A stretch of DNA of 64,000 bases, taken from a virus. Position 1 is the stretch's first letter. Each line of letters begins with the position of its first letter. The stretch lies in the IMG/VR virus record IMGVR_UViG_3300049893_003686; one strand, 5' to 3'. A program made the position numbers and the translations under genes. The notes beneath the pieces were generated by a model, which saw nothing but the letters and a program-made list of their open reading frames with translations, had not been told where the DNA came from and did not search any database. Shown here one piece after another: positions 1-42,346 of this stretch.

Positions 1-160
1 GGGCTTCTAGGGCTTATAGGGCTTCTAGGGTTTCTTGGGCTTCTGAGGCTTCTGTGGCTTCTTGGGTTTCTGGGGCTTATAGGGCTTCTTGGGTTTCTGT
101 GGTTTCTGGGTTTTCGGTGGTTTATAGAGGTTATGTGGTCTCTATAGTAAGAGGCGGTAG

Positions 161-412
161 ATGATTTCTTATGCTGTAGTTTATTTTTATTCTGGGGCTT
201 CTAGGGCTTCTGGGGCTTCTGGGTCTTATAGGGCTTCTGGGTCTTATAGGGCTTCTTGTGTTTCTAGGGCTTCTTGGATTTCTAGGGTTTCTGGGGTTTC
301 TGTGGCTTCTGTGGTTTCTGGGGCTTCTTGGGCTTCTTGGGCTTCTGGCGCTTCTAGGGCTTCTAGGGTTTCTGGGGTTTCTTGGGTTTCTGGAGTAAGG
401 GGTGGTAGATGA
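161..412 (+). CDS. Candidate small repeat protein (unit A1): N-terminal [10 protein letters not shown] followed by (A/V)-S-(G/R/W) triplets, ending RGGR
   Basis: AAGAGG lies 6 nt upstream of the ATG. The TGA stop overlaps the next ATG (ATGA). Low-complexity sequence, so coding status is unproven. Confidence 0.3.
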
Positions 413-678
413 TTTCTTATGCTGTAGTTTATTTGTATGGCGGGGCTTCTTGGGCCTCTAGGGCTTCTGGGGCTTCTAGGGCTTCTGGCGCTTCTGGGGC
501 TTCTGGGGCTTCTGGGGCTTCTGGGGCTTCTAGGGTTTCTAGGGTTTCTGGGACTTCTAGGGCTTCTTGGGCTTCTTGGGTTTCTAGGGCTTCTGGGGCT
601 TATAGGGTTTCTTGGGCTTCTGGGGCTTCTTGGGCTTCTGGAGGTTGTGCAACCTCTATAGTAAGGGGTAGTAGATGA
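409..678 (+). CDS. Candidate small repeat protein (unit A2)
   Basis: AAGGGG-N6-ATG and ATGA junctions at both ends; same (A/V)-S-(G/R/W) frame as unit A1. Confidence 0.3.
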
Positions 679-971
679 TTTCTTATGCTGTAGTTTATTT
701 TTATTCTGGGGCTTCTGGGGCTTCTTTGGTTTCTGGGGCTTCTAGGGCTTCTTGGATTTCTGGGGCTTCTAGGGCTTCTAGGGCTTCTAGGGCTTCTAGG
801 GCTTCTAGGATTTCTGAGGCTTCTGTGGCTTCTTGGGTTTCTGGGGCTTCTGGGGTTTCTGGGGCCTCTGGGGCCTCTGGGACTTCTAGGGTTTCTGGGG
901 CTTCTAGGGCTTCTTGGGTGTCTAGGGTTTCTTGGATTTCTAGGGCTTCTAGAGTAAGAGGCGGTAGATGA
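675..971 (+). CDS. Candidate small repeat protein (unit A3)
   Basis: Same architecture as units A1 and A2. The following copy (ATG 968) runs out of repeats and terminates after ~25 codons. Confidence 0.3.
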
Positions 972-1601
972 TTTCTTATGCTGTAGTTTATTTTTATGGT
1001 GAGGTTTCTGACGCTAACTCATATAGTAGGATATAAGGATCTATCTTTGACGCAGTAGCATCTACATCGGGATTACATCTTGATATAGCTGTTCGTGAGC
1101 ATAATTTTAATTTTCGCAAAGATCAATAGTTGCTAATAATATAGTTTATGATAAATAGCCTAAGTCTAATCCTTAATGTCTATCTATATAGAGATTTGCA
1201 ACAAACCTTATATCAAGGTCCGCAGTCAGTGGGTTATCGGTGTTTATGATTCTTCCCACTACATCATATAGACCTTATTACCAATATAGCTTAATTTAAA
1301 GCCCCGGATTGTAACTGGGAGATGCGAGCTTATATGCTCGCTATTGGTATTTGTAATTTACATATAATCGTATGCCAGTCGCACATACATCTGCTTATAG
1401 CACTTCGATATAATTATAGTTTATTCTGCTTAGAGGGCCATGTGATTACTTCATCACAGGCAGTCTAAAGCGATTTAAACCTTCTTGAAGAAAGCAATTA
1501 TATACACTAGAAAAATACCTAACCTAGATTAAGGAAGGGTAATTCCGTCAGAGGCAATTTTCTACTGCTATCGTATATGATTTTTATATCTCTACACTAG
1601 A

Positions 1602-1715
1602 AGGTTAATATCTTAGCGTCCAAGATATTAAATACTTTTGCGAAAAAACCGATCTATAAGATCACTGAGATCGCGGGGGAAAATATTCTTAGACAAATGC
1701 ATAGGGCGATCCGAG
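1602..1715 (+). repeat. Direct repeat copy 1 (114 bp) inside the gene-free core
   Basis: Matches 2172-2284 with 3 differences seen (two substitutions and one G indel in ..ATCACTGAGATCGCGGGGGA..). Contains the hairpin AATATCTT-agcgtcc-AAGATATT and the palindrome GATCT-ATA-AGATC. Confidence 0.95.
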
Positions 1716-2171
1716 TCTATACTTACTATTATTTCCTCAAGTAAATATATCCTAAGTACCCTATATAATTCTACGAGTTTATTCGACTAATGAGATTCTT
1801 CTTTTCGCGGCCAATAAATGGCACAGCCAGCTACTAGAAGCGCCTCATATTCGGTATAAACGCATTTTATAATAATAATTCTGAGCAACCCGCATAGGCC
1901 ATCTGGGCACCCATTTGGGTCTACTGTAATCATGTATATTTATAAGATTTTATCAAAGCCACTAGTGTGTGAAAAATATATTTGGGTTAATAAATTACTA
2001 ATCTACAATATCCTGCGGCAATTTTATAGTAGGCATCGCAGGTTGCAACATTTTCTATCTTGAAGATGGCGATAAGAATCCATTATATAGCGAGCGTTCT
2101 CACCAAGTGGAAATGTGTCACATCACATTAAGACAATCGTATATAGAGACATCCAGCAATAAATACCGCAT

Positions 2172-2284
2172 AGGTTAATATCTTAGCGTCCAAGATATTA
2201 AATACTTTTGCGAAAAAACCGATCTATAAGATAACCGAGATCGCGGGGAAAATATTCTTAGACAAATGCATAGGGCGATCCGAG
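2172..2284 (+). repeat. Direct repeat copy 2 (113 bp) inside the gene-free core
   Basis: See copy 1; same orientation, about 570 bp downstream. Confidence 0.95.
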
Positions 2285-2630
2285 GATTGGATCTAACACT
2301 ACTAGATCTATTCTAATACAATAGATAGTAACTTTAATTCTCTATATGTTAACCATACTCTAAACTTAAGAGTAATTCTAATCTACCAATATCATGCCTT
2401 TGCTATAAGATCTCCGATATCTATCAAAGCTATAAGTGCGTAATAATTTTTATTAGGTTAATACATTATTAACATTAATATAAATAACTGCCTAAATTCT
2501 ACACCCTAAGTCGCATTTCTTCAGATAATTAACTACACATTAACTGTGTGGGCAGCATACAGATGAGTTTGGTAACAGCTAACCCTAAAAACCTATACGA
2601 CATCATAATATAGCTATGGAGAGCGACGAG

Positions 2631-2846
2631 ATGATTTCTTATACGGCAATTTATTGGTATGGTGAAGATTCTAATACTTATGGGGTTTCTAGGGTTTCTG
2701 GGGATTATAGGGCTTCTTGGGCTTCTGGGACTTCTTGGGATTCTGCGGCTTCTAGTGTTTCTAGGGCTTCTAAGGTTTATAGGGCTTCTTGGGTTTCTGG
2801 GGTTTTTTGGGGTTATGTAATCTCCAGAGCAAGGAGTGGTCAATGA
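2631..2846 (+). CDS. Candidate small repeat protein (unit B1)
   Basis: The homologous ATGATTTCT start is at 2631; the ORF track extends it to an upstream ATG at 2616. ATGA junction at 2843-2846. Confidence 0.25.
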   Translation: MISYTAIYWYGEDSNTYGVSRVSGDYRASWASGTSWDSAASSVSRASKVYRASWVSGVFWGYVISRARSGQ

Positions 2847-3031
2847 TCTCTCATGCGACAGTTTATCTTTATGGTGGAGCTTATTGGACTTCTAAGGCTT
2901 CTAAGGCTTCTGGGATTTCTAAGGCCTCTTGGATTTCTAAGGCTTCTGGGGTTTCTAGGGTTTCTATGGCTTCTAGGGCTTCTGGGGGTTATGGGAGCTA
3001 TATAGTCTCCAGAGCAAGAGGTGGTAGATGA
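2843..3031 (+). CDS. Candidate small repeat protein (unit B2)
   Basis: AAGGAG lies 6 nt upstream of ATG 2843. ATGA junctions at both ends. Confidence 0.3.
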
Positions 3032-3279
3032 TTTCTCATGTGGGAGTTTATTTTTATTCTGTGGCTTCTTTGGTTTCTGGGGCTTCTTTGGTTTCTAGGG
3101 CCTCTAGGGCTTCTAGGGCTTCTAGGGCTTCTGTGGCTTCTGGGGCTTCTGGGGCTTTTAGGATTTCTGGGGTTTCTGGGGCTTCTTTGGTTTCTATGAC
3201 TTCTGGGGTTTCTGGGGCTTCTGGGGTTTCTGGGGCTTCTGGGGTTTCTGGGGTTTCTGGGGCAAGAGGTGGCAGATGA
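3028..3279 (+). CDS. Candidate small repeat protein (unit B3)
   Basis: AAGAGG-N6-ATG and ATGA junctions at both ends. Confidence 0.3.
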
Positions 3280-3551
3280 TTTCTCATGTGGGAGTTTATT
3301 TTTATTCTGGGGCTTCTTGGGTTTCTTGGGTTTCTGGGGTTTCTGTGACTTCTTGGGTTTCTAGGGTTTCTGGGGTTTCTGGGGTTTCTGTGACTTCTGG
3401 GGTTTCTGGGGTTTCTGGGGCTTCTGGGGTTTCTAGGGCTTCTAAGGCCTCTATGGTTTCTGGGGCAAGAGGTGGTAGATTATTTCTCATGTGGGAGTTT
3501 ATTGGTACGGCGAGGTTACTGGAGCGGACCTATTCGTATAGGAATAGATAA
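3276..3551 (+). CDS. Candidate small repeat protein (unit B4), reading through a decayed fifth linker
   Basis: AAGAGG-N6-ATG. The next junction is mutated (AGATTA instead of AGATGA), so the ORF continues to 3551. Confidence 0.25.
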
Positions 3552-3589
3552 TTTAAGTATAAAGCAATATACTTCACATAGAGAGTGAC

Positions 3590-4078
3590 ATGAATATCTT
3601 CCTAGTAGATACTGATCCAATTAAAGCAGCACAAGCGTTATGCGACAAACATTGTATCAAAATGATTCTAGAAACAGCACAATTGCTATCAACATCAGTA
3701 TACCTCACAAAAGGAGATTTAACAGGGCTGTATAAGCCAACCCATTTAGCACATCCATGTACTAAGTGGGCCTCAGAGTCTAAGATTAATTTTAATTGGC
3801 TAAAGAACCATGGATTAGGCCTTCTGTCGGAATATACGTTTCGATATCGAAAAGAGCATAAGTCAACACAGATAATATTAAAATGCACTAATGAATCTCT
3901 ACCAGACTTACCTGCTACAGATTTTGTTCAGGTAATGCCAGAGGTATATAGACGACCAGATCCTACAGAAGCATATAGGGCTTATTATAATAGTGCAAAG
4001 TATATGATGGCCACGTGGACAAGGCGGCAGCCTCCAGAATGGTGGTGCTCACAATTGTACGTAGAAAAGCACGAATAA
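3590..4078 (+). CDS. Conserved hypothetical protein
   Basis: 162-aa ORF and the first gene after the repeat region. The motifs DKHCIKMILETAQLLS and HPCTKWA recall a widespread phage/bacterial family that I cannot name with certainty. Confidence 0.7.
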   Translation: MNIFLVDTDPIKAAQALCDKHCIKMILETAQLLSTSVYLTKGDLTGLYKPTHLAHPCTKWASESKINFNWLKNHGLGLLSEYTFRYRKEHKSTQIILKCTNESLPDLPATDFVQVMPEVYRRPDPTEAYRAYYNSAKYMMATWTRRQPPEWWCSQLYVEKHE

Positions 4079-4114
4079 AGATAATCTATTATAAAATAAT
4101 ATTGAGGAGAATAG

Positions 4115-4477
4115 ATGCAGCCATCAGATATGATAATTAATCAAAAAGACTGCAGAGGGCTATTCGAGCAGCTGATCACATCGCAACCCTATGCTTTGAT
4201 AGATAAAATAAAGCTAGGTGAATTATCCAATGCGCGTATGGGAGAAGCGCTGGAGATAATAGGTCAGCTTAATTACGAATTGATACATGATATCTATGCC
4301 AATTTAGTAAATCATCATAACTCATTGGTACGTGGTGGCATAGTTTGCGGACTAGCCCTACATTCAGAAAATGTACAAGCTAGGCAATTACTTAAACAGA
4401 TGGCTGACTCAGATCCATCAGAGACAATACGATACGCTGCCGGACAAATATATTTCGAACATAGGTCAGTAAAATGA
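4115..4477 (+). CDS. Hypothetical protein, possibly HEAT-like repeats
   Basis: GAGGAG SD upstream. The helical-repeat-like C-terminus (..VQARQLLKQMADSDPSETIRYAAGQ..) is weak evidence. Confidence 0.6.
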   Translation: MQPSDMIINQKDCRGLFEQLITSQPYALIDKIKLGELSNARMGEALEIIGQLNYELIHDIYANLVNHHNSLVRGGIVCGLALHSENVQARQLLKQMADSDPSETIRYAAGQIYFEHRSVK

Positions 4478-4965
4478 TGCAGCATGTAGTTATCCATGAA
4501 GGGTCACTCCTTGATTCTAAGGATCAGTACTTGGCCCACCAGACAAACTGCATTTCAAAAAGAGCAGCACACCTAGCAGATGAGGTATTTGCTAAATATC
4601 CATATGCGAACGTTTATTCCAAACGCACATCTCAGGATGAACCAGGAACAATCATCATTAGCGGTAACGGCAACGATGAAAGATACGTCATCAATATGAT
4701 GGGGCAGGTCTATCCAGGCAAACCTAAGTATAGCGAGAGTGCCACTGATGGGTACAGAGCCCGATATAGATATTTTTTTCTATGCCTAAAAGCTATATCT
4801 AAAATAGATAATTTGCAAAGTATTGCATTTCCATGGCAGATAGGCTGTGGCGCAGCAGGTGGCAACTGGGAAGATTACTATAATTTACTAAATAAATTCG
4901 CGAAACATTTATCAGGTAAAGTAGAAGTAAAGATATATAGACTCCCAGATGATGATCATATATAA
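4474..4965 (+). CDS. Macro-domain protein (ADP-ribose binding/hydrolase, Poa1p/TARG1-like)
   Basis: ATGA overlap with the upstream gene. Motifs YLAHQTNC and IAFPWQIGCGAAGGNW resemble the macro-domain phosphate-binding loops. Confidence 0.65.
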   Translation: MMQHVVIHEGSLLDSKDQYLAHQTNCISKRAAHLADEVFAKYPYANVYSKRTSQDEPGTIIISGNGNDERYVINMMGQVYPGKPKYSESATDGYRARYRYFFLCLKAISKIDNLQSIAFPWQIGCGAAGGNWEDYYNLLNKFAKHLSGKVEVKIYRLPDDDHI

Positions 4966-4988
4966 TTTGTTATAACAAAGGTAAATTC

Positions 4989-5387
4989 ATGAAACAAATG
5001 GCAAGTCCTGGATGGAAGAACAAATCAGGTTACTATATCATAGAAAGAGAGGAATGGCGAGCAGAAATATATCCAAGCTCCAATAATTATGCCTGGCGTC
5101 TAGATCGTGCAGGATATACCCGATTCTCGGGAGAAGATAATAATTTAGAAGAGATTAAAAGAAATTTAGAATTAATACTAGGATATAGATTTCTTGTTAA
5201 AGAAGAGATTGTTATTGATAAATATTGCACATGTGGCGGATGCGCAAGATTTACTGGTCGATGGCAAGTACTTGACTGTATGGGCGAGGAAGAGCCGATC
5301 TTTCAGAGTGAGGATGATGCATTAGCTTGGATAGCCAATCAAGACATGAAGCACGAAATAGCTAATCTGGCACACAAAATGCAATAA
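4989..5387 (+). CDS. Hypothetical protein
   Basis: 132-aa ORF with AAGG upstream of the ATG and no recognised motif. Confidence 0.65.
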   Translation: MKQMASPGWKNKSGYYIIEREEWRAEIYPSSNNYAWRLDRAGYTRFSGEDNNLEEIKRNLELILGYRFLVKEEIVIDKYCTCGGCARFTGRWQVLDCMGEEEPIFQSEDDALAWIANQDMKHEIANLAHKMQ

Positions 5388-5457
5388 TCTGTACATGTGA
5401 TACTCATATTAGCTTAACTTAATATTTGCATATCAGGATATATGTGGAGAACATAAC

Positions 5458-5697
5458 ATGTTATTTACGATAGGAAATAGAGAATTTGAATTTGCTAGAC
5501 AAACTTCTGAAATAGGCAAGCTCTTCTGTGGTATGTATAATACCGAGACTGATGCGTATATAGGGGTACATTTCTTTGTATCAAAACCGACTCATAAGTA
5601 TTGGGGATTTCAGCAAGATGAGTTGGGCGGAACTTTAATGAAGCAATTTGGATTAGGTCCAATAGCATTATTTGTGTGGGTGGCATATGGCGAATAA
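5458..5697 (+). CDS. Hypothetical protein
   Basis: 79-aa ORF with GGAGAA upstream. Confidence 0.55.
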   Translation: MLFTIGNREFEFARQTSEIGKLFCGMYNTETDAYIGVHFFVSKPTHKYWGFQQDELGGTLMKQFGLGPIALFVWVAYGE

Positions 5698-5863
5698 AAA
5701 TAGCTTGAGAGTAGCACATAAAGGGTTGGCCTATCATGAAATGACTTCAGATGTTTATGATGGTCCAAGATCTATAAGTGACCGAAAATGGTGGAAGCGA
5801 TATGCCGCGAAGCGCAAAAGACGCACTGAAGATAATGAAATTGTAGAACAGATTGGCAAGTAA
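5687..5863 (+). CDS. Hypothetical small basic protein
   Basis: ATG at 5687 overlaps the upstream gene by 11 nt; the track's alternative start is 5672. An 8-bp hairpin (GTCTCTTA-atac-TAAGAGAC, 5877-5896) follows. Confidence 0.45.
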   Translation: MANKNSLRVAHKGLAYHEMTSDVYDGPRSISDRKWWKRYAAKRKRRTEDNEIVEQIGK

Positions 5864-6133
5864 GACCTGTACCACAAGTCTCTTAATACTAAGAGACGTA
5901 TGATAGAGAAATTAGGATGGATATAAATAAACGAAATTTAGAGGATGCTGGCGATCACATAGAAGCACACTTTTTGCTCAGAGCGTGGTTATCACGAACT
6001 ATGGTAAGTATTATATATGCTTAGGCTATACTGACAGTTAATTATAGTAATTATTATTGCCTTTACTTACCTCGTATAACGCATCATCAGAGATAATACG
6101 CGGTAACTGAAATCTTATTACTAGAGATTTTAT

Positions 6134-7243
6134 ATGCATGATGAAATCAATGTTGGAGTTGTAATCGGAAGATTCCAACCTCTACACATCTGTCACCTCT
6201 CAGAGGCGATCTTGCCCGCCCTAGATGAATCAGACACATTAATCATTCTTCTCGGATCATCGCACAGACCAAGTACACCTAAAAATCCATGGACGGACTC
6301 TGATAGGGCGGAGATGATTCATCTTGGCCTAAAAGACGCAGGGATGACCGTAGAGGCATATGGAAATTGGTTATTAAAGATAGGTGCGAGTGACACTACT
6401 CAAAAGACGGTATATATTGTTCCAATAAGAGACTTTGCTTATTCAGATATTCAGTGGCAGATGCAAGTGCAGGAGAAAGTAAGAGAGATCGTTTCATCCT
6501 GCTCAAATCTCGATAGCAAATATGAATCTGCAAAAATTAATCTATTTGGAGTAGATCGTGATGATACCACATTCTACCTTAAATTATTTCCTCAATGGAT
6601 AGATAAAACAACTAAGCGGGATAAGAGCTCCGATCAAGTTAAGGGCACAATGTGCAGAGAGCTGATTTTTGCTAGCGGCGCAAAAGGTCATGGGGAGTGG
6701 GGAAAGTACTTGTCACCCCAGGTATCAGAATTCATATTAAATTGGTGTAACTCAATATCATTTTCATCACTTAAAGAAGAGTTTGATTTTCTCAAACGAT
6801 ATAAGGCAGACTTATCTGGATATAAATATCCAATTATATTTCAAACAGTAGATAATATTATTCTATATAAGGGGCACGTCTTCTTGCTAAATAGGAGGAG
6901 TTTCCCTGGAAAAGGATTGCTATCTTTACCGGGCGGGTTTATAGATTCCAGTCTAACTCTACTTCAGAGCGCGCTATCTATAGCCAAAGAGAAAAGTAAA
7001 CTTAATCTTAAATTAGACTGGCTTGTAGCAAGCAAGACTTTCGATTATCCCGGACGCTCACTAAGAGGCAGGACTATCACTACAGCATTTCTCTGGAAAT
7101 TACCCGAGACAATGAATGTAATAGTTGCAGGGGCAAATAAAGAACACTGGTATCAGCTATGCGATATCATGAAAATGAGTGATTTCTTATATGAAGATCA
7201 CTATGATATCATAATTGATATGCTACAGCTTAGCAAGACATAA
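6134..7243 (+). CDS. Bifunctional-type nicotinamide-nucleotide adenylyltransferase (NMNAT) with a C-terminal Nudix-like domain
   Basis: The N-terminal GRFQPLHICH matches the cytidylyltransferase (H/T)xGH motif of NadR/NadM-type NMNAT. The C-terminal LPGGFIDSS..LSIAKEKSKL is a degenerate Nudix box that has lost the REx2EE acidic residues. Confidence 0.8.
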   Translation: MHDEINVGVVIGRFQPLHICHLSEAILPALDESDTLIILLGSSHRPSTPKNPWTDSDRAEMIHLGLKDAGMTVEAYGNWLLKIGASDTTQKTVYIVPIRDFAYSDIQWQMQVQEKVREIVSSCSNLDSKYESAKINLFGVDRDDTTFYLKLFPQWIDKTTKRDKSSDQVKGTMCRELIFASGAKGHGEWGKYLSPQVSEFILNWCNSISFSSLKEEFDFLKRYKADLSGYKYPIIFQTVDNIILYKGHVFLLNRRSFPGKGLLSLPGGFIDSSLTLLQSALSIAKEKSKLNLKLDWLVASKTFDYPGRSLRGRTITTAFLWKLPETMNVIVAGANKEHWYQLCDIMKMSDFLYEDHYDIIIDMLQLSKT

Positions 7244-7286
7244 GTCGATATACGACGCATATAACTTATTTTCGGAGGAATATACC

Positions 7287-8768
7287 ATGGAATTTTCAAA
7301 ATTTCTACATACTGACAGTTATAAATTAGCTCACTTCGAGCAATATCCAGCAGCCAAGAAGATGGTTGCTTATGGTGAATTTCGCAAGCCGTATCCTAAT
7401 ATTAAAGATGAGCGAATTGTTGTATACGGCATACAGTATTTAGTAGATAAATTTTTAAACAAACAGTGGACGGTAGAAGAACTTAATGCCGCATCACAAT
7501 TTGCCAGCAAACATAATGCTGGTTTAAAAGAATACCCATTTCCTCGGAAATTATTTACCGACATGATTGCTGAAAATAACGGATACTTTCCAGTTAAGGT
7601 AGAGGCTGTTCCGGACGGAACAGTGGTATACCCACATGTGCCAGTGTATCAGATTACAGCAGAGGGGAAGTATTCGGGTCTGGTAACATACATCGAAAGT
7701 TTTCTGTCGCACTTATGGTATTCAACTACTGTAGCAACTCTTTCACGACATACTAAAACACTTATCAAAAATGCGTTCGATCTTACTGTAGATGATAATA
7801 TGAGGTGGTTACTTGGGAGTCGATTGCATGATTTTGGTTATCGAGGCTGTGCGTCTGATGAGCAGGCTATGATCGGAGGTGCCGCACACCTACTTAATTT
7901 TGATGGTACAGATACGATGCTAGCTGCTGCATATGCACACTATCAAAATAATGGAGAAGAATTTGCACAAAGTATTCCAGCTACAGAGCATTCGGTAATG
8001 ACATCATGGCCATCAGAAGTTGATGCAGTTCGAAATATGATCCACCACTACGGAGATGGTGTATTTGCCTGTGTAGCTGATAGCTATGACTATAAGCACT
8101 TTCTTCATCATGTATTGCCAGCAGTAGCAGCTGATGTGCAGGCTAAGGGCGGCACAATGGTAATTAGACCAGACTCTGGCGATCCACTTAAATCAGTGAT
8201 AGACGGACTCTATGCTTGTCAAAGATATTTTGGAATATCCTATAATAAAAAGGGATTTAAGGTACTGAACAATAGCGCAATAATTCAAGGTGACGGCATT
8301 AATATAGAGATAGTTGATAACATACTTACTGAGGTTATTAATAATGGATTCAGCGCACAGAACGTAGCCTTCGGCATGGGCGCCGGCCTATTACATAAAC
8401 ATAATAGAGATACTATGAGTTTTGCCACTAAGTTATCATATATTGAATATGCAGATGGGACAAGTAGGAACATTATGAAGGCACCTAAAACGGATCCGGA
8501 GAAGTACTCACTACCTGGTATACTTAAGGTAATTAATGATGACCTATTGAAGGTTGGAACAGAAGAAGATCGTGGTAATAACTTGCTGATAACAGTGTAT
8601 GATGGCAGACCAGTAGATTTTAAAGAGAAATTTTCTAACATCCGCGCTAAGGTAGAACATCAATGGAATCTCTTACCGCCTAAAGTAGAAAACCTATTTA
8701 CAGATAAGTTAAAGATGAAGATAAATGAGACAATCTTTAACTTAAGAAATAGCACGTCCAAATCCTAA
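7287..8768 (+). CDS. nadV: Nicotinamide phosphoribosyltransferase (NAMPT)
   Basis: The N-terminal HTDSYKLAHFEQYP matches the TDSYK signature. CGGAGGAA SD at 7273-7280. The length (~493 aa) and the GYRG and GDG blocks fit NAMPT. The track start at 7215 is probably an upstream extension. Confidence 0.9.
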   Translation: MEFSKFLHTDSYKLAHFEQYPAAKKMVAYGEFRKPYPNIKDERIVVYGIQYLVDKFLNKQWTVEELNAASQFASKHNAGLKEYPFPRKLFTDMIAENNGYFPVKVEAVPDGTVVYPHVPVYQITAEGKYSGLVTYIESFLSHLWYSTTVATLSRHTKTLIKNAFDLTVDDNMRWLLGSRLHDFGYRGCASDEQAMIGGAAHLLNFDGTDTMLAAAYAHYQNNGEEFAQSIPATEHSVMTSWPSEVDAVRNMIHHYGDGVFACVADSYDYKHFLHHVLPAVAADVQAKGGTMVIRPDSGDPLKSVIDGLYACQRYFGISYNKKGFKVLNNSAIIQGDGINIEIVDNILTEVINNGFSAQNVAFGMGAGLLHKHNRDTMSFATKLSYIEYADGTSRNIMKAPKTDPEKYSLPGILKVINDDLLKVGTEEDRGNNLLITVYDGRPVDFKEKFSNIRAKVEHQWNLLPPKVENLFTDKLKMKINETIFNLRNSTSKS

Positions 8769-8812
8769 AATAGTATTTAGGAATAAATTTCACCATCTCA
8801 ATAAAAAATCTT

Positions 8813-9016
8813 ATGATAACAAGATTAAAACAAAGTCTGAATTTGATTTTAAAAAAACTATCACAGGAGCATAAATCTTCTTTAGATTATGATATTCCTG
8901 AGTTAAATACAATATGCTGGAAATCCCCAGCGTATCCAACTCAAATTCATAAAGAAATACAGTTATTTGATAATGATATAATTAAATGGGAGAGGTATTT
9001 CCCAAGAGTGGAGTAG
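8813..9016 (+). CDS. Hypothetical protein
   Basis: 67-aa ORF only. Confidence 0.5.
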   Translation: MITRLKQSLNLILKKLSQEHKSSLDYDIPELNTICWKSPAYPTQIHKEIQLFDNDIIKWERYFPRVE

Positions 9017-9023
9017 AATTAAG

Positions 9024-9149
9024 ATGGCTAATATAATATATAGATTATTGCTGATTATGGCAGTACCAGCATTAATATTTGGATTATTCACTAAATGCTG
9101 GGCACCACTCAATATCTATAGAAAGTGTATACTTGTGAATTTTGAATAA
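9024..9149 (+). CDS. Possible 41-aa membrane peptide
   Basis: ATG 9024, stop 9147-9149. Hydrophobic core LLLIMAVPALIFGLF. Below the ORF-track cutoff. Confidence 0.3.
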   Translation: MANIIYRLLLIMAVPALIFGLFTKCWAPLNIYRKCILVNFE

Positions 9150-9168
9150 AGTTATTAAGGATTAGTAT

Positions 9169-9417
9169 ATGGAAAGAACGCAAATACAAGAAAGGCTCAG
9201 GTTATTAACGGAACGACAGACACTTTTAAGAGAATATTTGATGCGTCCACTGCAAGTGGCTAAAGATAAATCAAAATTATCAATAGTTGATATTAAGAAG
9301 CATCAGGTCTTACCACAACACCTATGGAAAGAAATGCAACTGCAATATTTTAAAACCTCAAAGGAAATTGAAACACTTACTGCTCAAATTGTCGATCACG
9401 GTCAAAATAAAATATGA
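9169..9417 (+). CDS. Hypothetical protein (coiled-coil-like)
   Basis: 82-aa ORF with an ATGA overlap to the next gene. Confidence 0.55.
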   Translation: MERTQIQERLRLLTERQTLLREYLMRPLQVAKDKSKLSIVDIKKHQVLPQHLWKEMQLQYFKTSKEIETLTAQIVDHGQNKI

Positions 9418-9809
9418 TACCGACTACGCTAAATACTTTAGAACAAGCACTTACAACTGGATTTTGGGAAGACCTTTTAGAGGTTTTACTTAAGCTTAAA
9501 GCTGATAAACAAGAATTGCCTAAGCAATTTAGAGGAGTGAAGAATATATATAAGGCTAAGGACCTCAAAGGGCTCTGTTTTGATCGATTAGGTGATGATC
9601 CAGATTGTGAATGGATTTTAGATGATAGACTATGGGGAGTTTTTCAAAAGCATAAAATTACAGGATACTTCGCCCATCTCGATGATAGCACGACTACATA
9701 TATTGGAACTTACTTCATGGAAGGATATGCATATAAAGCAGATGTGCTTCATAAAATGGATATGAATATTGTAGTGCGAGCGGCAGAGGAATTAAAACCT
9801 AAGGTATAA
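9414..9809 (+). CDS. Hypothetical protein
   Basis: 131-aa ORF, translationally coupled to the upstream gene. Confidence 0.6.
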   Translation: MIPTTLNTLEQALTTGFWEDLLEVLLKLKADKQELPKQFRGVKNIYKAKDLKGLCFDRLGDDPDCEWILDDRLWGVFQKHKITGYFAHLDDSTTTYIGTYFMEGYAYKADVLHKMDMNIVVRAAEELKPKV

Positions 9810-9816
9810 TTCATAC

Positions 9817-10827
9817 TTGCGGGAAGCAAAGACACTGATGCTAATTCCATGGAAAACAATACGCTCATTGCTATTTCGTCTAGATGCGGAAGATGCACAT
9901 AGTTTAGCAATTAAATATTTAAAAATATTATCCAAAGCACTCCCAGCTACATCACCAAATATTAGCTCCCCTGTAGAAGTATTCGGCGTACAATTTCCTA
10001 ACCCTTTAGGCTTAGCAGCTGGATTTGATAAAGACGGTGAAGCCATACTTGCCTGGCAAAGACTTGGCTTCGGATTTGTTGAAGCAGGGACAGTAACCGC
10101 ACATCCTCAACAAGGAAATCCTCGTCCGCGTCTAACTAGGATACCAGAGCACTATGCGCTTAAAAATTGTATGGGCTTCAATAATGCCGGAGCCAAGGCC
10201 TTAGGAATTAAGCTGCAAAAGTTACGCGACAAAGAAATAGTAAATATTCCAATAGGAATTAATATTGGAAAATCAAAAATAGTATCAAATGAAGAGGTAA
10301 TACAAGACTATTGCAAGTCGTTCTCATATATAAAAGACGTAGCTGATTATGTCGCAATAAATATCTCAAGCCCAAACACTCCAAGCTTACGAGATCTTCA
10401 GACTGCTAATATGATTAAAAAAATCATGGATGCTTTAATGGAATTAAATCGCAAGCAGGTACCGATACTTATCAAACTTTCTCCAGATTTGGATGATGAT
10501 ACATTAATAAGCTGTGCCATAGGAGCTATTGACTGTGGAGCCCAAGGTCTTATATTAGCAAATACATCTACCTCTACAGGACTGATGCCTAACATGAGCG
10601 GAGGAGTTTCCGGTCAACCTATACGAGAGCGAGCGAATTCCACAATTAAACTCATTAGGACTGCCGTTAGTGATAAGATTCCATTAATTGGAGTTGGAGG
10701 AATAATTGATCATAATGATGCCAACGAGAGGATTAAATCAGGAGCTACGCTTATACAGGCATACACTGGATTTGTTTATGGTGGACCATCGTTTGCAAAA
10801 GACATCATTCGACAATTAGATATATGA
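9817..10827 (+). CDS. pyrD: Dihydroorotate dehydrogenase (quinone), class 2
   Basis: Motifs FPNPLGLAAGFDKDGEA, GFGFVEAGTVT, GNPRPRL and MGFNNAG. The start may be TTG 9817 or ATG 9838. Confidence 0.9.
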   Translation: MREAKTLMLIPWKTIRSLLFRLDAEDAHSLAIKYLKILSKALPATSPNISSPVEVFGVQFPNPLGLAAGFDKDGEAILAWQRLGFGFVEAGTVTAHPQQGNPRPRLTRIPEHYALKNCMGFNNAGAKALGIKLQKLRDKEIVNIPIGINIGKSKIVSNEEVIQDYCKSFSYIKDVADYVAINISSPNTPSLRDLQTANMIKKIMDALMELNRKQVPILIKLSPDLDDDTLISCAIGAIDCGAQGLILANTSTSTGLMPNMSGGVSGQPIRERANSTIKLIRTAVSDKIPLIGVGGIIDHNDANERIKSGATLIQAYTGFVYGGPSFAKDIIRQLDI

Positions 10828-10828
10828 A

Positions 10829-11035
10829 ATGCAGTTCATAGATAAAAATACATACATTGTAATGCTATGGAATATGATACATGGCTGGATACCAGTCACA
10901 AACCCTTTAACTCAAGAGCTAGCAGAAGCCGCATGGCATAGTTTAACGTGTTCAGGCACACTAAATTCCAAATACGAAGACGGCAATTACTTTAAGATCT
11001 TCATACATAGCACTACAGATACCATACAGGATTAA
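10829..11035 (+). CDS. Hypothetical protein
   Basis: 68-aa ORF abutting pyrD. Confidence 0.5.
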   Translation: MQFIDKNTYIVMLWNMIHGWIPVTNPLTQELAEAAWHSLTCSGTLNSKYEDGNYFKIFIHSTTDTIQD

Positions 11036-11039
11036 CAAA

Positions 11040-12137
11040 ATGAAGCTACCGACATTATTTTCTCGTACCTCCAGTGGGGCTATCCAAATATGGGAAGTTG
11101 AAGTAATTGATAATAAACATCGCGTAATATCAGGACAGATTGATGGGCAAAAAGTTCAGTCAGAATGGACTGTGTGCGTATCAAAAAATATCGGAAAAAG
11201 CAATGAGACATCTCCAGCTCAGCAGGCCGAACTAGAAGCAGGAGCTAAGTGGAAGAAGAAATTAGAGTCCGGCTATAAGGAGTCTATAGCCGATATAGAT
11301 CAGGTAGGTTTTATTGAGCCAATGCTAGCCAAATCATTTAGTGATTATGAACACGAGATCAAATATCCTGTGTTTAGTCAGCCTAAGTATGACGGGATTA
11401 GGTGTGTAGCTACAAAAAATGGCCTCAGTAGTAGAGGTGGCAAAAGATTCTCTAGCGTACCTCATATAATGGAGGCACTACGACCAATATTTGATAAATT
11501 CCCGCAGCTAGCTTTTGACGGCGAACTATACTGCGATAAATTTGCTAATGATTTTAATCAAATATGCTCTCTCGTAAAGAAGTCAAAGCCATCTACTCAA
11601 GACCTTAAAAATAGTGCTGAAGCAATAGAGTATTGGGTATATGATATTCCCAATGATGAGATGAACATATTTTCAGACCGATATGAGCTACTAGCCACTT
11701 TATTAAAAGATGCGCCAAAGTGCATTAGGATTGTTCCCACACGAATAGTCTATGATAAGTCCCAATTAGATAACGAATATTCTTCATACCTAGAGTTAGG
11801 ATATGAAGGACAGATGGTTCGACTTAATGGCCCTTATGAGAATAAGAGAAGCAAGTTTCTCTTAAAAAGAAAAGAATTTGTTGATAATGAATATCTGATA
11901 GTTGATATAATTGAGGGCGACGGCAACAAGAGTAATATGGCAGCCTCTATGCTATTGCGAGACTCTACTAGTAAAGAATTTAATTCAAATATTAAAGGTA
12001 ATAGACAATATCTACGCAAACTCTTAATAGACAAGAATAACCTTTTAGGCAAACTGGCAACAGTGAAATATTTTAATTTAACGCCTGATGGTATACCTAG
12101 ATTCCCATATGTGATTGCCATAAGAGATTATGAGTAG
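11040..12137 (+). CDS. ATP-dependent DNA ligase (T7-like size)
   Basis: Motif I KxDG is present as SQPKYDGIRC. The 365-aa length and the EGQMVR and LLKRK blocks resemble adenylation and OB-domain motifs. Confidence 0.9.
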   Translation: MKLPTLFSRTSSGAIQIWEVEVIDNKHRVISGQIDGQKVQSEWTVCVSKNIGKSNETSPAQQAELEAGAKWKKKLESGYKESIADIDQVGFIEPMLAKSFSDYEHEIKYPVFSQPKYDGIRCVATKNGLSSRGGKRFSSVPHIMEALRPIFDKFPQLAFDGELYCDKFANDFNQICSLVKKSKPSTQDLKNSAEAIEYWVYDIPNDEMNIFSDRYELLATLLKDAPKCIRIVPTRIVYDKSQLDNEYSSYLELGYEGQMVRLNGPYENKRSKFLLKRKEFVDNEYLIVDIIEGDGNKSNMAASMLLRDSTSKEFNSNIKGNRQYLRKLLIDKNNLLGKLATVKYFNLTPDGIPRFPYVIAIRDYE

Positions 12138-12161
12138 AGATATTACAATATAGGAGCGGCA

Positions 12162-13163
12162 GTGACTTTAAATAGTGATTGGCAAATGGCCAAAGTGACA
12201 GACCCTAATATAATAAATTTGGCTGTAGGGGAACCATACTTCCTGCAAAATGCATTGCGACAAAGTAATATTCTAGATAAATGTACTGTACGACTATCTG
12301 GTTTAGAGTACCCACCTTTTGGAGGAGAACCTAAATTAATTGAAGCTATCAAACGGTTGCCTAACTTCGGTGACTATAAGCATGTAGTAATTACTAATGG
12401 GGCAAAGCAGGCCATCTCAGCAGCACTGTATGCTGCAACTGAAGTTAGGCATGCCAAGCGACTCGTACATAGTGCCCCATACTGGCCGTCGTACCCAACT
12501 CTAGCATATCAATGTGGACTTCAGTTCTCTGAAATAGGGAGTGGGTTAGATACGGTAGTTGCCATAACATCGCCAAATAATCCAGATGGAATGCAGGTAT
12601 CGGAACAGAAGTGTTATATTTGGGACGCAGCATATGCGTCTCCTCTATATGGATATAAGGGGGATCATCCGACTGCTGAAGTAGCTATAGTAAGCCTAGC
12701 TAAGTCTTTAGGCATATCAGGGTTACGTATAGGAGCAGCACTTACAAATGATGATGTGCTGGCAAAGTACATGGCATATTTCGTTGAAATATCAACTAGC
12801 GGAGTATCTACAACAGCACAAGAGCAGTGTACAATGCTCATCAAGCATATACTTTCAGATGGAAGTGACGAATTCGCTTCAGTTATTGAGCGCGCTAGAA
12901 GCACACTATCGAACAATCGCAGCTTATTTCGTCAAGTATTATTACCGATTTGTGATGAGGCCAAATTTTCTCACGGTATGTTTGCCTGGTTTAAGCCCAA
13001 TAATAAAGTTGAATTCTCAAATATACTTGAGCATGCAGGAGTTAGGGTAGTAGATGGAGGGGCCTGCGGCGTTCAGGGATGGTTTAGAATGAGTTTAGGA
13101 CTGGATATAAATGCATTTACTGCAGCGATAGAAGCGATATCAACACATATATCAGATCAATAA
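12162..13163 (+). CDS. PLP-dependent aminotransferase, class I/II
   Basis: NLAVGEP, ITSPNNPDG, and SLAKSLGISGLRIGA (the PLP-lysine motif S-x-x-K..G-x-R-x-G). GTG start at 12162 or ATG at 12186. Confidence 0.8.
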   Translation: MTLNSDWQMAKVTDPNIINLAVGEPYFLQNALRQSNILDKCTVRLSGLEYPPFGGEPKLIEAIKRLPNFGDYKHVVITNGAKQAISAALYAATEVRHAKRLVHSAPYWPSYPTLAYQCGLQFSEIGSGLDTVVAITSPNNPDGMQVSEQKCYIWDAAYASPLYGYKGDHPTAEVAIVSLAKSLGISGLRIGAALTNDDVLAKYMAYFVEISTSGVSTTAQEQCTMLIKHILSDGSDEFASVIERARSTLSNNRSLFRQVLLPICDEAKFSHGMFAWFKPNNKVEFSNILEHAGVRVVDGGACGVQGWFRMSLGLDINAFTAAIEAISTHISDQ

Positions 13164-13186
13164 AATTCATAATATTAGGAGATAAT

Positions 13187-13396
13187 ATGCCGTTATTTGA
13201 TTACAAATGTAAGTTATGTAATAGTAAAACAGAGTATCTACTCAAAAATAGCGATGAGATTCCCTATATATGCGAGAATTGTGGGGCAGTATTATCATTA
13301 GTTAAAGAGATATCTAGAAGCACATTTGCATTAAAGGGCTCTGGATGGTATAAGGACCTCTATGGAAATAAATCAGAGACGTCATCAAGTAATTAA
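13187..13396 (+). CDS. FmdB-family zinc-ribbon protein
   Basis: MPLFDYKCKLC..CENCG follows the CxxC..CxxC pattern typical of this family. AGGAG SD. Confidence 0.7.
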   Translation: MPLFDYKCKLCNSKTEYLLKNSDEIPYICENCGAVLSLVKEISRSTFALKGSGWYKDLYGNKSETSSSN

Positions 13397-13557
13397 TTAC
13401 ACCAGTGTAGCTAAGCATACATATTAAGATTGATTACTGCATAAGGAAATATGCAGGCTATGCAATCACAAAAGCTGGTTACCAACGAAGCTTTCAGCTC
13501 ACAATATAATAGATGAGTAAAGTATAAAGATTCACTCTCTTCAAGGAAAGATTACAA

Positions 13558-14136
13558 ATGACTATATGGTTCACCAGCGACCTTCATTTCGGACACGCAA
13601 ATATCATCAAATACTGCAAAAGACCCTATTCTAATGTTGATGATATGAATGAAGCTCTAATAGATAATTGGAATAGCATAGTGCAGAAGGATGATATTGT
13701 ATATGTCCTAGGAGATTTTGCATACGGAAGGCACTTTACACCAGATAAAGCAGCGCGTGTGCTACAGAGATTATCAGGGATTAAAGTTCTAATTGCCGGA
13801 AACCATGATGAAGACAACTTAAGATCTTCACAATTTCGCTCTAAGTTCGAAGAGATACATTCATTATTTGAGCTAAAAATTCCACCAAAGCGTGGTGAAC
13901 GACACGGCACTATGATTGTAATGTGCCATTACCCTATGCGCAAATGGAATCAGTCACATAGAGGATCTATTCATCTGTTCGGACATGAGCATGGGTCTTC
14001 GCCTGAAGATAAGGCATCTCGTAGTATGGATGTTGGAGTAGATTGCCATAATTATTACCCAATTTCTTTTGAAGAAGTTTTGGAAAAAATGGAAACTAAG
14101 ACCTGGAAGCCCAAACGAAATAATAATGAGGAATAG
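13558..14136 (+). CDS. Calcineurin-like metallophosphoesterase
   Basis: SDLHFGH, LGDF, GNHD and GHEH motifs in the canonical order. Confidence 0.8.
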   Translation: MTIWFTSDLHFGHANIIKYCKRPYSNVDDMNEALIDNWNSIVQKDDIVYVLGDFAYGRHFTPDKAARVLQRLSGIKVLIAGNHDEDNLRSSQFRSKFEEIHSLFELKIPPKRGERHGTMIVMCHYPMRKWNQSHRGSIHLFGHEHGSSPEDKASRSMDVGVDCHNYYPISFEEVLEKMETKTWKPKRNNNEE

Positions 14137-25708: not shown

Positions 25709-25792
25709 GGGCCAGTAGACGCGCTCCGCTCATAACGGAGTAAGGGTAATTTGGTTCTGAAAATGTGGGTTCAAGTCCCACCTGGCCCACCA
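25709..25792 (+). tRNA. Atypical tRNA-like element, copy 1 (CAU anticodon loop, no canonical D arm, 24-nt variable region, CCA encoded)
   Basis: Acceptor GGGCCAG/CTGGCCC. Hairpin CTCCG-CTCATAA-CGGAG. T arm GTGGG-TTCAAGT-CCCAC. Discriminator A followed by CCA. Only 8 nt (TAGACGCG) lie in the D-arm position. Identical to 42249..42332. Confidence 0.5.
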
Positions 25793-25936
25793 TTTACACG
25801 TACTCAATTCCTAATCTGACGTACGGTAATAGAATGATTAGGATCTCACTCTTCGGGATTTAAGAGCAACCCTTTAGCCTTAGGCGTTGTAGTACGGAGA
25901 GAAAAGGCCATCTTCTTTTAAGGAGAGCGTCAGCTA

Positions 25937-42248: not shown

Positions 42249-42332
42249 GGGCCAGTAGACGCGCTCCGCTCATAACGGAGTAAGGGTAATTTGGTTCTGA
42301 AAATGTGGGTTCAAGTCCCACCTGGCCCACCA
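42249..42332 (+). tRNA. Atypical tRNA-like element, copy 2 (identical to 25709..25792)
   Basis: The 84 nt are identical by eye, including the CCA. Identity continues for 3 nt (TTT) downstream, while the upstream flanks differ. Confidence 0.5.
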
Positions 42333-42346
42333 TTTTAACATCTTAG

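Follow-up and report, generated by a model that had tools for sequence, protein, structure and literature searches.

Tandem DNA repeats with a unit divisible by three and a reading frame that is never broken have been described for the Borgs as aaTRs or "de novo repeat peptides" (PMC9879509). They yield low-complexity, disorder-prone segments, some of the predicted proteins being almost entirely repeat, and the reality of these proteins was argued from their start codons and from the divisibility by three (PMC9879509). The copy number of the Borg repeats turns over fast, and the repeats are perfect, recent and of independent origin at each locus (PMC9879509).

The window analysed here, a 64-kb (64,000-nucleotide) stretch of the IMG/VR virus record IMGVR_UViG_3300049893_003686, contains two arrays of the 9-mer TCT-DGG-GYT, at positions 1–1036 (block A) and 2616–3551 (block B), which are split into units by a linker of ~50 nt with AAGRRG-N6-ATGA. 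Judged from sequence, these arrays of a large phage are rather likely to be genuine genes that slippage has remodelled; they would encode basic, disordered proteins rich in Ser, Arg and Trp, with selection on frame, composition and termini.

Array anatomy and translation signals

The window contains seven complete units, one 5′-truncated unit and two decayed terminal linkers (Table 1). The initial annotation described seven consecutive ORFs of 60–98 aa; all seven are complete, but three belong to block A and four to block B, with ~1.6 kb of ORF-free DNA between them. This spacer also contains a tRNA-like element (1280–1349) and a 115-nt direct repeat (1602–1715 / 2172–2284). The arrays lie just upstream of the first genes in the window. 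The stretches between linkers comprise 110–240 nt of one 9-mer, with 12–27 copies per block, more than 140 altogether, and a TRF match rate of 71–81%. A CRISPR array, which has repeats of 23–50 nt and unique spacers of similar length, was rejected because the inter-linker stretches consist of one 9-mer and are not unique.

Table 1. Coordinates of the array features in the 64-kb window
Feature	Position	Strand	Details
5′-truncated first unit	3..164	+	same frame open from window edge; TGA 162–164; following SD AAGAGG 149–154
Unit ORF, 83 aa	161..412	+	22 tripeptides after head, then VRGGR; TGA overlaps next ATG
Unit ORF, 89 aa	409..678	+	SD AAGGGG 397–402
Unit ORF, 98 aa	675..971	+	SD AAGGGG 663–668; tail RVRGGR
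Block A terminal remnant	968..1036	+	SD, ATG and head intact; no 9-mers after; 22-codon ORF ending TAA
Inter-array spacer	1037..2615		AT-rich, ORF-free, ~1.6 kb, outside the repeat
Block B first unit, 71 aa	2631..2846	+	own GGAGAG upstream; degenerate body
Unit ORF, 62 aa	2843..3031	+	SD AAGGAG 2831–2836
Unit ORF, 83 aa	3028..3279	+	SD AAGAGG 3016–3021; tail ARGGR
Block B last unit, 91 aa	3276..3551	+	SD AAGAGG 3264–3269; ends TAA 3549–3551
Block B decayed terminal linker	3464..3515	+	SD kept; ATG to ATT at 3479–3481; no array after

As first noted, an SD lies 6 nt before the ATG (AAGRRG at 149, 397, 663, 956, 2831, 3016 and 3264), and the units are joined by ATGA junctions (at 161, 409, 675, 968, 2843, 3028 and 3276). 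That every unit has such an SD is correct for these seven junctions, but block B opens with a unit (ATG 2631) that is preceded by GGAGAG; each array's first unit possesses its own SD-like site despite the lack of an upstream repeat. AAGRRG-N6-ATGA is matched eight times in the window, seven times in the arrays, with 0.99 matches expected from shuffled sequence (both strands, 128 kb). Similar sites are used by real genes of the window (GAGGAGAATAGATG at 4115 and GAGGAGGTGATAGATG at 61354), and a real gene pair with an ATGA overlap is found at 4474–4477. The units show the features of a translationally coupled polycistron, an SD at 5–9 nt from the start and a stop that overlaps the next start. 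Each macro-unit is probably a small gene, with AAGRRG 6 nt before its ATG and a TGA overlapping the next ATG, and a single rightward transcript would give a series of paralogous 60–98-aa proteins by termination-reinitiation coupling, with the junction style that real gene pairs of this phage also have.

The six macro-unit periods (248, 266, 293, 212, 185 and 248) are all 2 mod 3, in agreement with the initial annotation, and also 5 mod 9. With all periods at 5 mod 9, agreement in frame among the units follows automatically and counts once, not seven times; the window units are copies of each other, and independent support thus comes from other genomes rather than from the number of units.

The ORFs read (A/V)-S-(G/R/W), the frame originally assigned to them. 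The predicted products have a short head of aromatic and aliphatic residues with the consensus M-I-S-[YH]-x-x-V-Y-[FWL]-Y, a body of 12–27 tripeptides with G (45%), R (35%) or W (about 20%) in the third slot, and a tail [GS]-[YH]-[VI]-x-S-x-[VA]-R-G-G-R, or plain [VA]RGGR. The C-terminal RGGR first attributed to all ORFs is present in four units, with RGSR in one and RSGQ in one; the last ORF reads through the decayed linker to 3551 because ATGA became ATTA (3479) and the normal stop was lost. The first unit of block B has a possible earlier ATG at 2616, giving 76 aa, and the 5′-truncated unit matches the family profile with an E-value of 6.5e-14. Serine makes up 22–30% of the predicted products, acidic residues are almost absent, W and Y are present and the pI is 9.5–12. 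AlphaFold2 gave a mean pLDDT of 46, with no confident fold and no structural clue. The profile search of ten ORFs against Pfam-A and PHROGs gave no significant family match, the best PHROG hit (E 0.005) being to a low-complexity collagen-like model, phrog_30509. This and a 17-bit match to PF01391 come from the last third of ORF 3028–3279, which reads G-V-S/G-A-S. Collagen was rejected, as the PF01391 cut-off is 27.2 bits and the other nine ORFs have no match. The products most likely form a previously undescribed family of small, basic, disordered proteins rich in serine.

Relatives in other phage contigs

The SD, ATG, ATGA and frame are kept in a second genome, while the 9-mer number varies, in keeping with the expectation of the initial annotation. 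This array (L064/L070, below L064) is located in IMGVR_UViG_3300049893_002454, an IMG/VR phage contig of 125.5 kb that is otherwise unrelated to the window. It occupies a slot between co-directional genes at 21.4–22.2 kb and is thus internal to the contig, on which ground a telomere-like end was rejected. Its units have about 16, 21 and 20 9-mers, with the head MMSHAVVYWYGG and the tail ARGGR, and a terminal G-to-A change turns TGA into TAA, so that the stop is retained. Two of its junctions have AAGRRG-N6-ATGA in the one frame of the seven window junctions, the first unit having AAAAGG instead. Comparison of the 21-kb L064 locus with the 64-kb window by tblastx detected the arrays alone. The linkers share ~85% nucleotide identity, as estimated by eye, between regions otherwise without detectable similarity, which indicates nucleotide-level constraint or recent transfer. 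In intact units, indels whose length is not a multiple of 9 are all multiples of 3; unit 2 of L064 carries an insertion of 12 nt, and L198 shows three shifts of a single codon.

Beyond the window and L064, the family includes nine small proteins predicted on three further metagenome contigs. Eight of them have the head MIS[HY]xxVY[FW]Y and the tail xRGGR, and were called independently by gene callers in two JGI contigs of 47,627 and 18,087 bp. A single-sequence protein search found nothing, and only the profile search (1.84 billion proteins) succeeded, recovering P0013, P0049, P0088, P0140, P0146, P0147 and P0149, for all of which one 47,627-bp contig is on record, and P0058. The recovered proteins are 35–68 aa long and share head and tail, with short, degenerate bodies; in the JGI-contig members these are just 4–14 degenerate tripeptides. 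Logan contig L071 starts inside the last unit.

The ninth protein is the link to a further sub-family, "type 2", whose head and tail differ. Its master 9-mer contains TCC in place of the TCT of type 1, a synonymous difference in the ASx frame. The type 2 units mostly have no SD at a usable distance and two are frameshifted. The type 2 head pattern found nothing in IMG/VR.

No real match to the region came from megablast or blastn searches of 50,697 GenBank phage records. Linker-pattern scans of IMG/VR, metagenome contigs and GTDB genomes gave only L064 and chance matches inside ordinary genes. A four-unit 9-mer scan of metagenome contigs yielded at least 120 loci, which were screened by 9-mer density and linker motif; the linker is absent from all loci among the matches listed. 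The densest of these, L084, was rejected as the opposite-strand reading of a eukaryotic PEAPE gene, and the remaining loci among the matches listed are taken to be similar coding repeats. Short-read assemblies break in the array, gene callers disagree on the strand and homology filters discard the products, so that such families are systematically under-seen.

Sequence variation and alternative readings

The array sequences evolve unlike ordinary protein genes. Variation among the 9-mers is concentrated, as initially described, at the first base of NGG and the Y of GYT, i.e., at position 4 (G 66, A 51, T 29, C 0) and position 8 (C 88, T 56; n=146 units), while T1, T3, G6 and T9 hardly vary. 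The 197 units comprise 51 distinct 9-mers, and the consensus is identical in the window and L064. A tally by codon position, suggested earlier as a check on coding, gave the opposite of ordinary purifying selection: third positions vary least, the minor-allele fractions at positions 3, 6 and 9 summing to 0.075 (window) and 0.18 (L064), compared with 0.64–0.80 for the other two phases. The pN/pS ratio is 1.0 for the heads and ~0.9 for type 2 paralogues, with the three codon positions equally variable, and 0.41 for the RGGR tail, where it is the lowest of three frames. The combination of third-position excess and pN/pS well below 1 that marks an ordinary gene under purifying selection was not found. 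Array codon usage (GGG, AGG, TCT, GCT, GTT) differs from the A-ending preference of the phage; GGG and AGG each account for 14% of their codon families in real genes and dominate in the arrays. Stop-codon avoidance was discarded as a coding test, having no statistical power, with TGG and TAT alone reaching a stop in one step. The tandem protein family originally proposed is thus favoured by the signals and frame kept in the second genome, and opposed by the codon-position tally. The translation signals of the array units are well supported, while a protein with an exact sequence that matters is not.

It is possible, but on balance doubtful, that the arrays are a non-coding G-rich repeat acting as DNA or RNA, with the ORFs as by-products. 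The functional unit would then be GGGYTTCTD and the linker a second binding site. The repeat (GGGGCTTCT)n is a candidate former of G-quadruplexes or R-loops on the non-template strand, or a candidate set of binding sites for phage or host proteins, like contiguous iteron or centromere repeats; the ParB centromere of plasmid pCXC100, with its contiguous 9-bp repeats, is a reported precedent (PMC3074162). Conservation at the nucleotide level even where changes are synonymous (T1, T3, G6, T9) is in line with this, as is position 4, which is never C although CGG likewise encodes Arg and which counts against a coding reading. The pN/pS values show no coding signature, and the codon usage is atypical for the phage. 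All 19 non-overlapping canonical G-quadruplex sequence motifs (G3+ N1–7, at least four times) of the 64-kb window are in the arrays and on the + strand, and C runs of three or more are absent from the arrays. Moreover, the make-up of the repeat leaves four of six frames open (ASx and LLG on the + strand, xEA and PRS on the − strand), several open frames being a caveat already raised in the initial annotation. The type 2 units were not all called on the same strand by gene callers, and the ORF-free AT-rich spacer is flanked by the two blocks.

Several findings argue against the non-coding repeat. The probability of SD-N6-ATGA arising by chance in a random 50-nt linker is roughly 4e-4, and signal, frame and stop are retained in the second genome. 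The ATG is intact in 10/10 linkers that precede an array and mutated in 2/3 terminal linkers, being lost solely where no array lies behind (ATT at window 3479, ATA at L064 779). The JGI members keep heads and tails around their few degenerate tripeptides, which is hard to fit to a function of 9-mer runs. The 9-bp period is out of helical phase. The linker has no conserved RNA structure (−4 kcal/mol, no compensatory pairs or covariation), and a whole unit is only slightly more stable when folded than its shuffled versions (z = −2.2). With Rfam 15 covariance models, neither the gathering threshold nor a cut-off of E 1 gave a match in 1–1036 or 2616–3551. A promoter (T7/SP6-like or other) in "CTATAG" was also rejected, as there is no enrichment.

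An unlikely alternative combines both functions in dual-use "accordion genes", where the G-rich 9-mer would be functional as nucleic acid and also be read into variable-length polycationic peptides. The nucleic-acid layer may consist of G-quadruplexes or R-loops on the non-template strand, or of RNA with alternating SD-like GGGG and anti-SD-like CUUCU, and slippage would give the phage a contingency locus tuning both layers. This would explain the frozen synonymous positions alongside the kept start, stop and frame.

Coding in another frame or strand, i.e., hydrophobic G-L-L / G-F-L peptides from the second frame of the + strand or P-E-(A/T) peptides from the − strand, is hardly probable. In the LLG phase, the position that varies most (N) is the synonymous third base of CTN, Y gives Leu or Phe, and ORFs of 46–74 aa exist; however, this frame has no consistent start and no SD, and is closed by ATG-CTG-TAG (linkers 161, 409 and 675), by ATG-CGG-TAG (L064 linkers) and by TAA in GTAAGR (block A linkers). 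The − strand xEA frame uses the phage-preferred codons CCA and GAA and has block B ORFs of 62–104 aa, and two type 2 units were placed on the − strand by JGI. However, the CAT needed for an ATG is TAT throughout block A, no SD is present, L198 − strand starts are TTG or GTG codons without a consistent location, and the direction is contrary to that of essentially all neighbouring genes, which run with the arrays as read on the + strand. The xEA frame also shares the low-variability third-position phase of ASx.

It is quite improbable that the arrays are a selfish or decaying satellite, a once-coding small gene expanded by slippage and functionless now, translated or not. A pN/pS of about 1 would fit such a satellite, as would the rarity of the family, the linker scans having given a single other contig, and the decayed units at both array edges (window 968 and 3479; L064 779; L198 1338 and 1556). 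However, at least four or five phage contigs retain the architecture among different neighbours, every internal unit keeps an intact start, stop and SD, and the window devotes ~1.9 kb to the arrays in an otherwise tightly packed genome.

Proposed role and comparison with known systems

For the favoured reading, that of slippage-remodelled genes, it is hypothesized that the 9-bp repeat lengthens and shortens in 9-bp steps through slipped-strand mispairing or unequal recombination; because the steps are 9 bp, the frame is kept automatically. Selection would act on frame, composition, termini and copy number and not on exact sequence. The products may be disordered polycations that bind or condense nucleic acid, similarly to protamines or RGG/SR-type low-complexity proteins. 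If translated, they would constitute an undescribed phage protein family built wholly from a short DNA repeat and arranged as a coupled paralogue series, a family conserved by architecture and not by sequence. Such a family would parallel, in a bacterial virus, the disordered Borg proteins born from repeats, and would be a test case for genes that arise from, and coexist with, tandem repeats. If non-coding, the arrays, as the window's sole G-quadruplex-dense segment, would be a candidate regulatory or replication element.

Protamine, SR and RGG-box proteins are Arg/Ser/Gly-rich, strongly basic and without a stable fold, and their composition is conserved while the sequence drifts. The predicted phage products are similarly Arg/Ser/Gly-rich, basic and probably unfolded, with a C-terminal RGG-like motif, but carry Trp/Tyr and a hydrophobic N-terminal decapeptide; the likeness is only an analogy in how they may work. 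Collagen-like G-X-Y phage tail fibre proteins also derive a tripeptide repeat from a 9-bp DNA unit. In the phage products, however, the third slot is Gly in only about 45% of cases and mostly Arg or Trp otherwise, prolines are absent, and the proteins are stand-alone, of 60–98 aa, as opposed to fibre domains.

The junction logic is identical to that of ATGA-coupled genes in phage operons, but here the junction itself belongs to a tandem repeat and joins paralogous copies of a single low-complexity gene. Short-repeat arrays bound by partition or regulatory proteins are generally far shorter than 12–27 units per block, and unlike them the phage arrays carry translation signals; no candidate binding protein for the repeat was identified among the genes of the window. 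The centromere of pCXC100 is reported to have likewise head-to-tail 9-bp units with a conserved core (PMC3074162).

Like the Borg aaTRs, the phage arrays have a 9-bp unit divisible by three, and every unit lies in an ATG-to-stop ORF. Unlike the perfect or single-SNP Borg repeats, the phage 9-mer is imperfect, as its many distinct versions show, and its consensus is common to phages that are otherwise dissimilar in the regions compared. The phage units are polycistronic, SD/ATGA-coupled mini-genes with conserved heads and tails, and their carrier is a bacteriophage as opposed to an archaeal extrachromosomal element.

Architecture of the repeat arrays and their junctions

The 9-mer, in the register TCT-DGG-GYT, fills positions 1–1036 (block A) and 2616–3551 (block B) of the window, and in both blocks its runs are broken by a conserved linker of ~50 nt. 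The unit ORFs have the same layout throughout: an N-terminal head, a body of (A/V)-S-(G/R/W) tripeptides (the ASx frame) and a C-terminal tail. The repeat units, the SD sites in the linkers, the ATGA junctions and the common ASx frame described in the initial annotation were borne out with small corrections. The seven ORFs stand, but they are arranged as three plus four in blocks ~1.6 kb apart rather than consecutively. The AAGRRG site 6 nt before the ATG, ascribed to each linker, is found at seven junctions, while the unit at 2631 has GGAGAG, and the C-terminal RGGR ascribed to each ORF is present in some tails, others differing from it.

Features of the window and their positions
Feature	Position	Strand	Remarks
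5'-truncated unit	3–164	+	same frame as other units
Unit ORF, block A	161–412	+	
Unit ORF, block A	409–678	+	
Unit ORF, block A	675–971	+	
22-codon remnant	968–1036	+	end of block A
Structured region	1211–1349		second structured piece (~69 nt) directly 5' of the tRNA-like element
tRNA-like element	1280–1349	+	anticodon loop AUUGUAA, atypical T-loop
Direct repeat, 115 nt	1602–1715		first copy
Direct repeat, 115 nt	2172–2284		second copy
Unit ORF, block B	2631–2846	+	
Unit ORF, block B	2843–3031	+	
Unit ORF, block B	3028–3279	+	
Unit ORF, block B	3276–3551	+	
Gene cluster 3' of array	3590–8768		DenV-like and macro-domain proteins, NAD-salvage pair
NMNAT	6134–7243		
NAMPT	7215–8768		
RlaP-family nucleotidyltransferase	17279–18409		
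tRNA-like element, 87 nt	25709–25795		first copy
Tandem repeat, 12/18/30 nt	29140–29280		within a 774-aa ORF
Ro60 orthologue	37853–39460		TROVE plus vWA_Ro60, E 5e-62
tRNA-like element, 87 nt	42249–42335		second copy, identical

The motif AAGRRG-N6-ATGA occurs at 149, 397, 663, 956, 2831, 3016 and 3264, and has one further match in the window, for which 0.99 would be expected over both strands. In the final linker the ATG is replaced by ATT at 3479, and therefore the last ORF lacks its TGA and continues to the end of block B. Very similar start sites are found in real genes of the phage, for example GAGGAGAATAGATG at 4115 and GAGGAGGTGATAGATG at 61354, as is the ATGA overlap, for example at 4474. 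No additional family member was found by family-profile search in the rest of the window.

The macro-unit periods (248, 266, 293, 212, 185, 248 and 203) are all 2 mod 3, as had been stated, and also all 5 mod 9; the recurrent agreement in frame hence counts as one event that comes with the 9-bp period. By construction, the consensus 9-mer can hold no stop in four frames of six (+ strand ASx and LLG, – strand xEA and PRS), so that openness by itself is uninformative. Stop avoidance is likewise powerless as a test of coding, because only TGG and TAT lie one step from a stop. Unlike the frame agreement, the junction signal is not automatic, SD-N6-ATGA having a probability of roughly 4e-4 in a random 50-nt linker.

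Related arrays and the small-protein family

A scan of IMG/VR with the 9-mer yielded one true relative, IMGVR_UViG_3300049893_002454, whose array is internal to the contig (21.4–22.2 kb of 125.5 kb) and flanked by a co-directional epimerase-like gene and an FAD oxidoreductase, with nucleotide-sugar genes upstream. On L070, a piece of this relative, genes for a UDP-glucose dehydrogenase-like protein, a HAD hydrolase and three epimerase-like proteins lie directly upstream of the array, and the FAD oxidoreductase and two IscA/HesB-like Fe-S proteins downstream (969–9052). When the relative's 21-kb locus was compared with the 64-kb window by tblastx, the arrays were the sole similarity detected.

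L064, another piece covering this array, shows its three units, which are 65, 75 and 77 aa long. Their SD is AAAAGG or AAGAGG, in the arrangement SD-N6-ATGA; the heads read MMSHAVVYWYGG or MIAHAVVYFYSL, and the proteins end in ARGGR or VRGGR. The comparison with relatives that the initial annotation had proposed came out in its favor, the internal units of L064 keeping the SD, the ATG and the ATGA junctions. In the terminal linker the ATG has become ATA, a substitution that also yields TAA in place of TGA and so preserves the stop. Unit 2 carries 12-nt and 18-nt insertions relative to unit 1, the former disrupting the 9-mer register and leaving the frame unaffected. In the window and L064 together, all 10 linkers that precede an array have an intact ATG, and two of three terminal linkers a mutated one (hypergeometric p about 0.04).

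With a profile built from the ORFs of the window, 1.84 billion representative proteins were searched. The matches were mostly long low-complexity proteins, together with short proteins aligning from residue 1. Seven of the latter (P0013, P0049, P0088, P0140, P0146, P0147 and P0149) each have one 47,627 bp contig on record, taken to be one and the same JGI contig, and P0058 comes from an 18,087-bp contig. These eight proteins, of 35–68 aa, have heads MI[SC][HS]xxVY[FW][YH]G and tails [GNS][YH][VI]TSx[VA]RG[GD]R, the latter in agreement with those of the window, and degenerate bodies of 4–14 tripeptides. The termini, and not the repeat, are therefore the conserved parts in that JGI genome.

A weaker match, P0128, led to L198 (JGI Ga0255825_1000582, 57.5 kb), whose FtsK-like gene is 52% identical to that of the window. 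Its positions 1338–5953 hold a second family, type 2, with seven + strand ORFs of 78–93 aa, heads M[RK]AV[RK]AAxTxAxYVRG, tails ASEFSxKK and bodies of (A/T/S)-S-x, underlain by the 9-mer GCTTCCNGG. Units are divided by conserved 36–37-nt spacers, not by ATGA overlaps, and at the 5' edge two extra units have shifted into the LPG frame. An SD at usable distance is missing from most type 2 units and present in about half of the real genes of L198. The JGI gene caller placed two units on the + strand and two on the – strand, leaving the others uncalled. The master 9-mers of type 1, the family of the window and L064, and type 2 differ by TCT versus TCC, synonymous in the ASx frame; serine codons of type 2 are TCC 81, TCT 39, TCA 11, TCG 7 and AGY 7.

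Codon positions, composition and alternative readings

The tally of 9-mer substitutions by codon position (146 units of the window and 51 of L064) went against the proposed frame. In both, variability is lowest at its third positions (3, 6 and 9), with no signature of purifying selection. The summed minor fraction is 0.075 in the window and 0.18 in L064 for phase 3, 6, 9 (ASx/xEA), as compared with 0.66 and 0.71 for phase 1, 4, 7 (LLG/PRS) and 0.64 and 0.80 for phase 2, 5, 8 (FxG/QKP), and a clean coding signature is absent from all three phases. Variation in the proposed frame is nearly all non-synonymous, and C is absent at position 4, though CGG also encodes Arg. For type 1, pN/pS is 1.00 in the heads and 0.41 in the tails, where the other two frames give higher values; for type 2 paralogues it is about 0.9 in heads and tails alike, with entropies of 4.4, 3.6 and 3.5 bits at codon positions 1, 2 and 3. 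Coding in another frame or on the other strand appears very improbable. The arrays use GGG, AGG, TCT, GCT and GTT, whereas the phage genes prefer GGA, AGA, TCA, GCA and GTA, and GGG and AGG each make up 14% of their codon families in the real genes.

The + strand of the arrays is 32–34% G, 40% T, 15–16% C and 9–13% A, with no C runs of three or more. The arrays hold every one of the window's 19 canonical G-quadruplex motifs, on the + strand only, with runs of GGGGCTTCT as the candidate quadruplex-forming sequence. Such a composition, and would-be synonymous sites that stay fixed, would suit a non-coding G-rich DNA or RNA element, a reading regarded as possible but doubtful; no conserved RNA structure was found in the linker, Rfam gave no match within the arrays, and the junction signals count against it. 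No array ORF scored above threshold against Pfam or PHROGs, one having weak collagen-like matches; collagen, CRISPR and any Pfam, PHROG or Rfam family were rejected as the identity of the arrays.

On balance, the arrays probably represent real coupled mini-genes in the frame first proposed. The strongest evidence comes from the translation signals, which are specific, typical of this phage and preserved, alongside independent substitutions, in a second genome. The opening unit of every array carries the signals too, and their decay is confined to places with no array behind them; the family with its conserved termini also persists where the repeat has shrunk. Satellite DNA without function, which would account for the lack of protein-level purifying selection but hardly for these signals, is improbable. 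That lack, and the fixed would-be synonymous sites, count against coding; the conflict can be reconciled by concerted evolution of a slippage-prone repeat or by selection for composition instead of sequence, as in protamine-like and disordered proteins, and possibly by an additional constraint at the nucleic-acid level. The predicted proteins have 22–30% Ser, a pI of 9.5–12 and 7–13 basic against 0–4 acidic residues, and AlphaFold2 gave a pLDDT of 46 for a predicted product. From this composition, it is proposed that they would be disordered polycations binding nucleic acid.

Genomic surroundings and known systems

The window is a portion of a large phage genome for which nucleotide searches found no similar phage in GenBank, and its ORFs of 120 aa or more almost all lie on the + strand. 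Its genes encode, among others, a DenV-like protein, a macro domain, an NMNAT/NAMPT NAD-salvage pair, a ClpB/Lon-like ATPase, Ro60/TROVE, RlaP, an FtsK-like ATPase and a subtilase. The DenV-like protein (PHROG "DNA binding protein", weak Pyr_excise hit) is encoded immediately 3' of the array and is followed by the macro-domain protein. The Logan short-read contig L071 is identical to 3405–14078 and begins within the last repeat unit, and short-read assemblies therefore break in the array.

The ORF-free spacer between the blocks (1037–2615) contains a tRNA-like element (37.4 bits against Rfam tRNA) missed by ARAGORN. The 115-nt direct repeat, in AT-rich non-coding spacer, has copies 96–100% identical and ~570 nt apart, with short hairpins and a fold no better than shuffles (z = -0.7). 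Two further tRNA-like elements, which match Rfam at 42 bits, again with no ARAGORN prediction, end in an encoded CCA; the D-arm is reduced, the anticodon loop carries CAU and the variable insert measures 21 nt. Ro60 and RlaP both belong to bacterial RNA-repair/Y-RNA modules, and because of the nearby Ro60 gene these 87-nt elements may be candidate tRNA mimics of the Y-RNA/YrlA kind. The tandem repeat (AGGTGAAGGAGA and variants) in the ORF with a C-terminal OmpA-family domain is separate from and unrelated to the 9-mer arrays.

No description of such phage arrays was found in the literature searched. The closest described phenomenon is that of the amino-acid tandem repeats and "de novo repeat peptides" of Borg elements, which likewise have unit lengths divisible by three, disorder-prone products and rapid change of copy number (PMC9879509). 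Unlike the Borg repeats, the phage 9-mer is imperfect and its consensus is conserved across phages, and the arrays are polycistronic series of SD/ATGA-coupled paralogues with conserved heads and tails.
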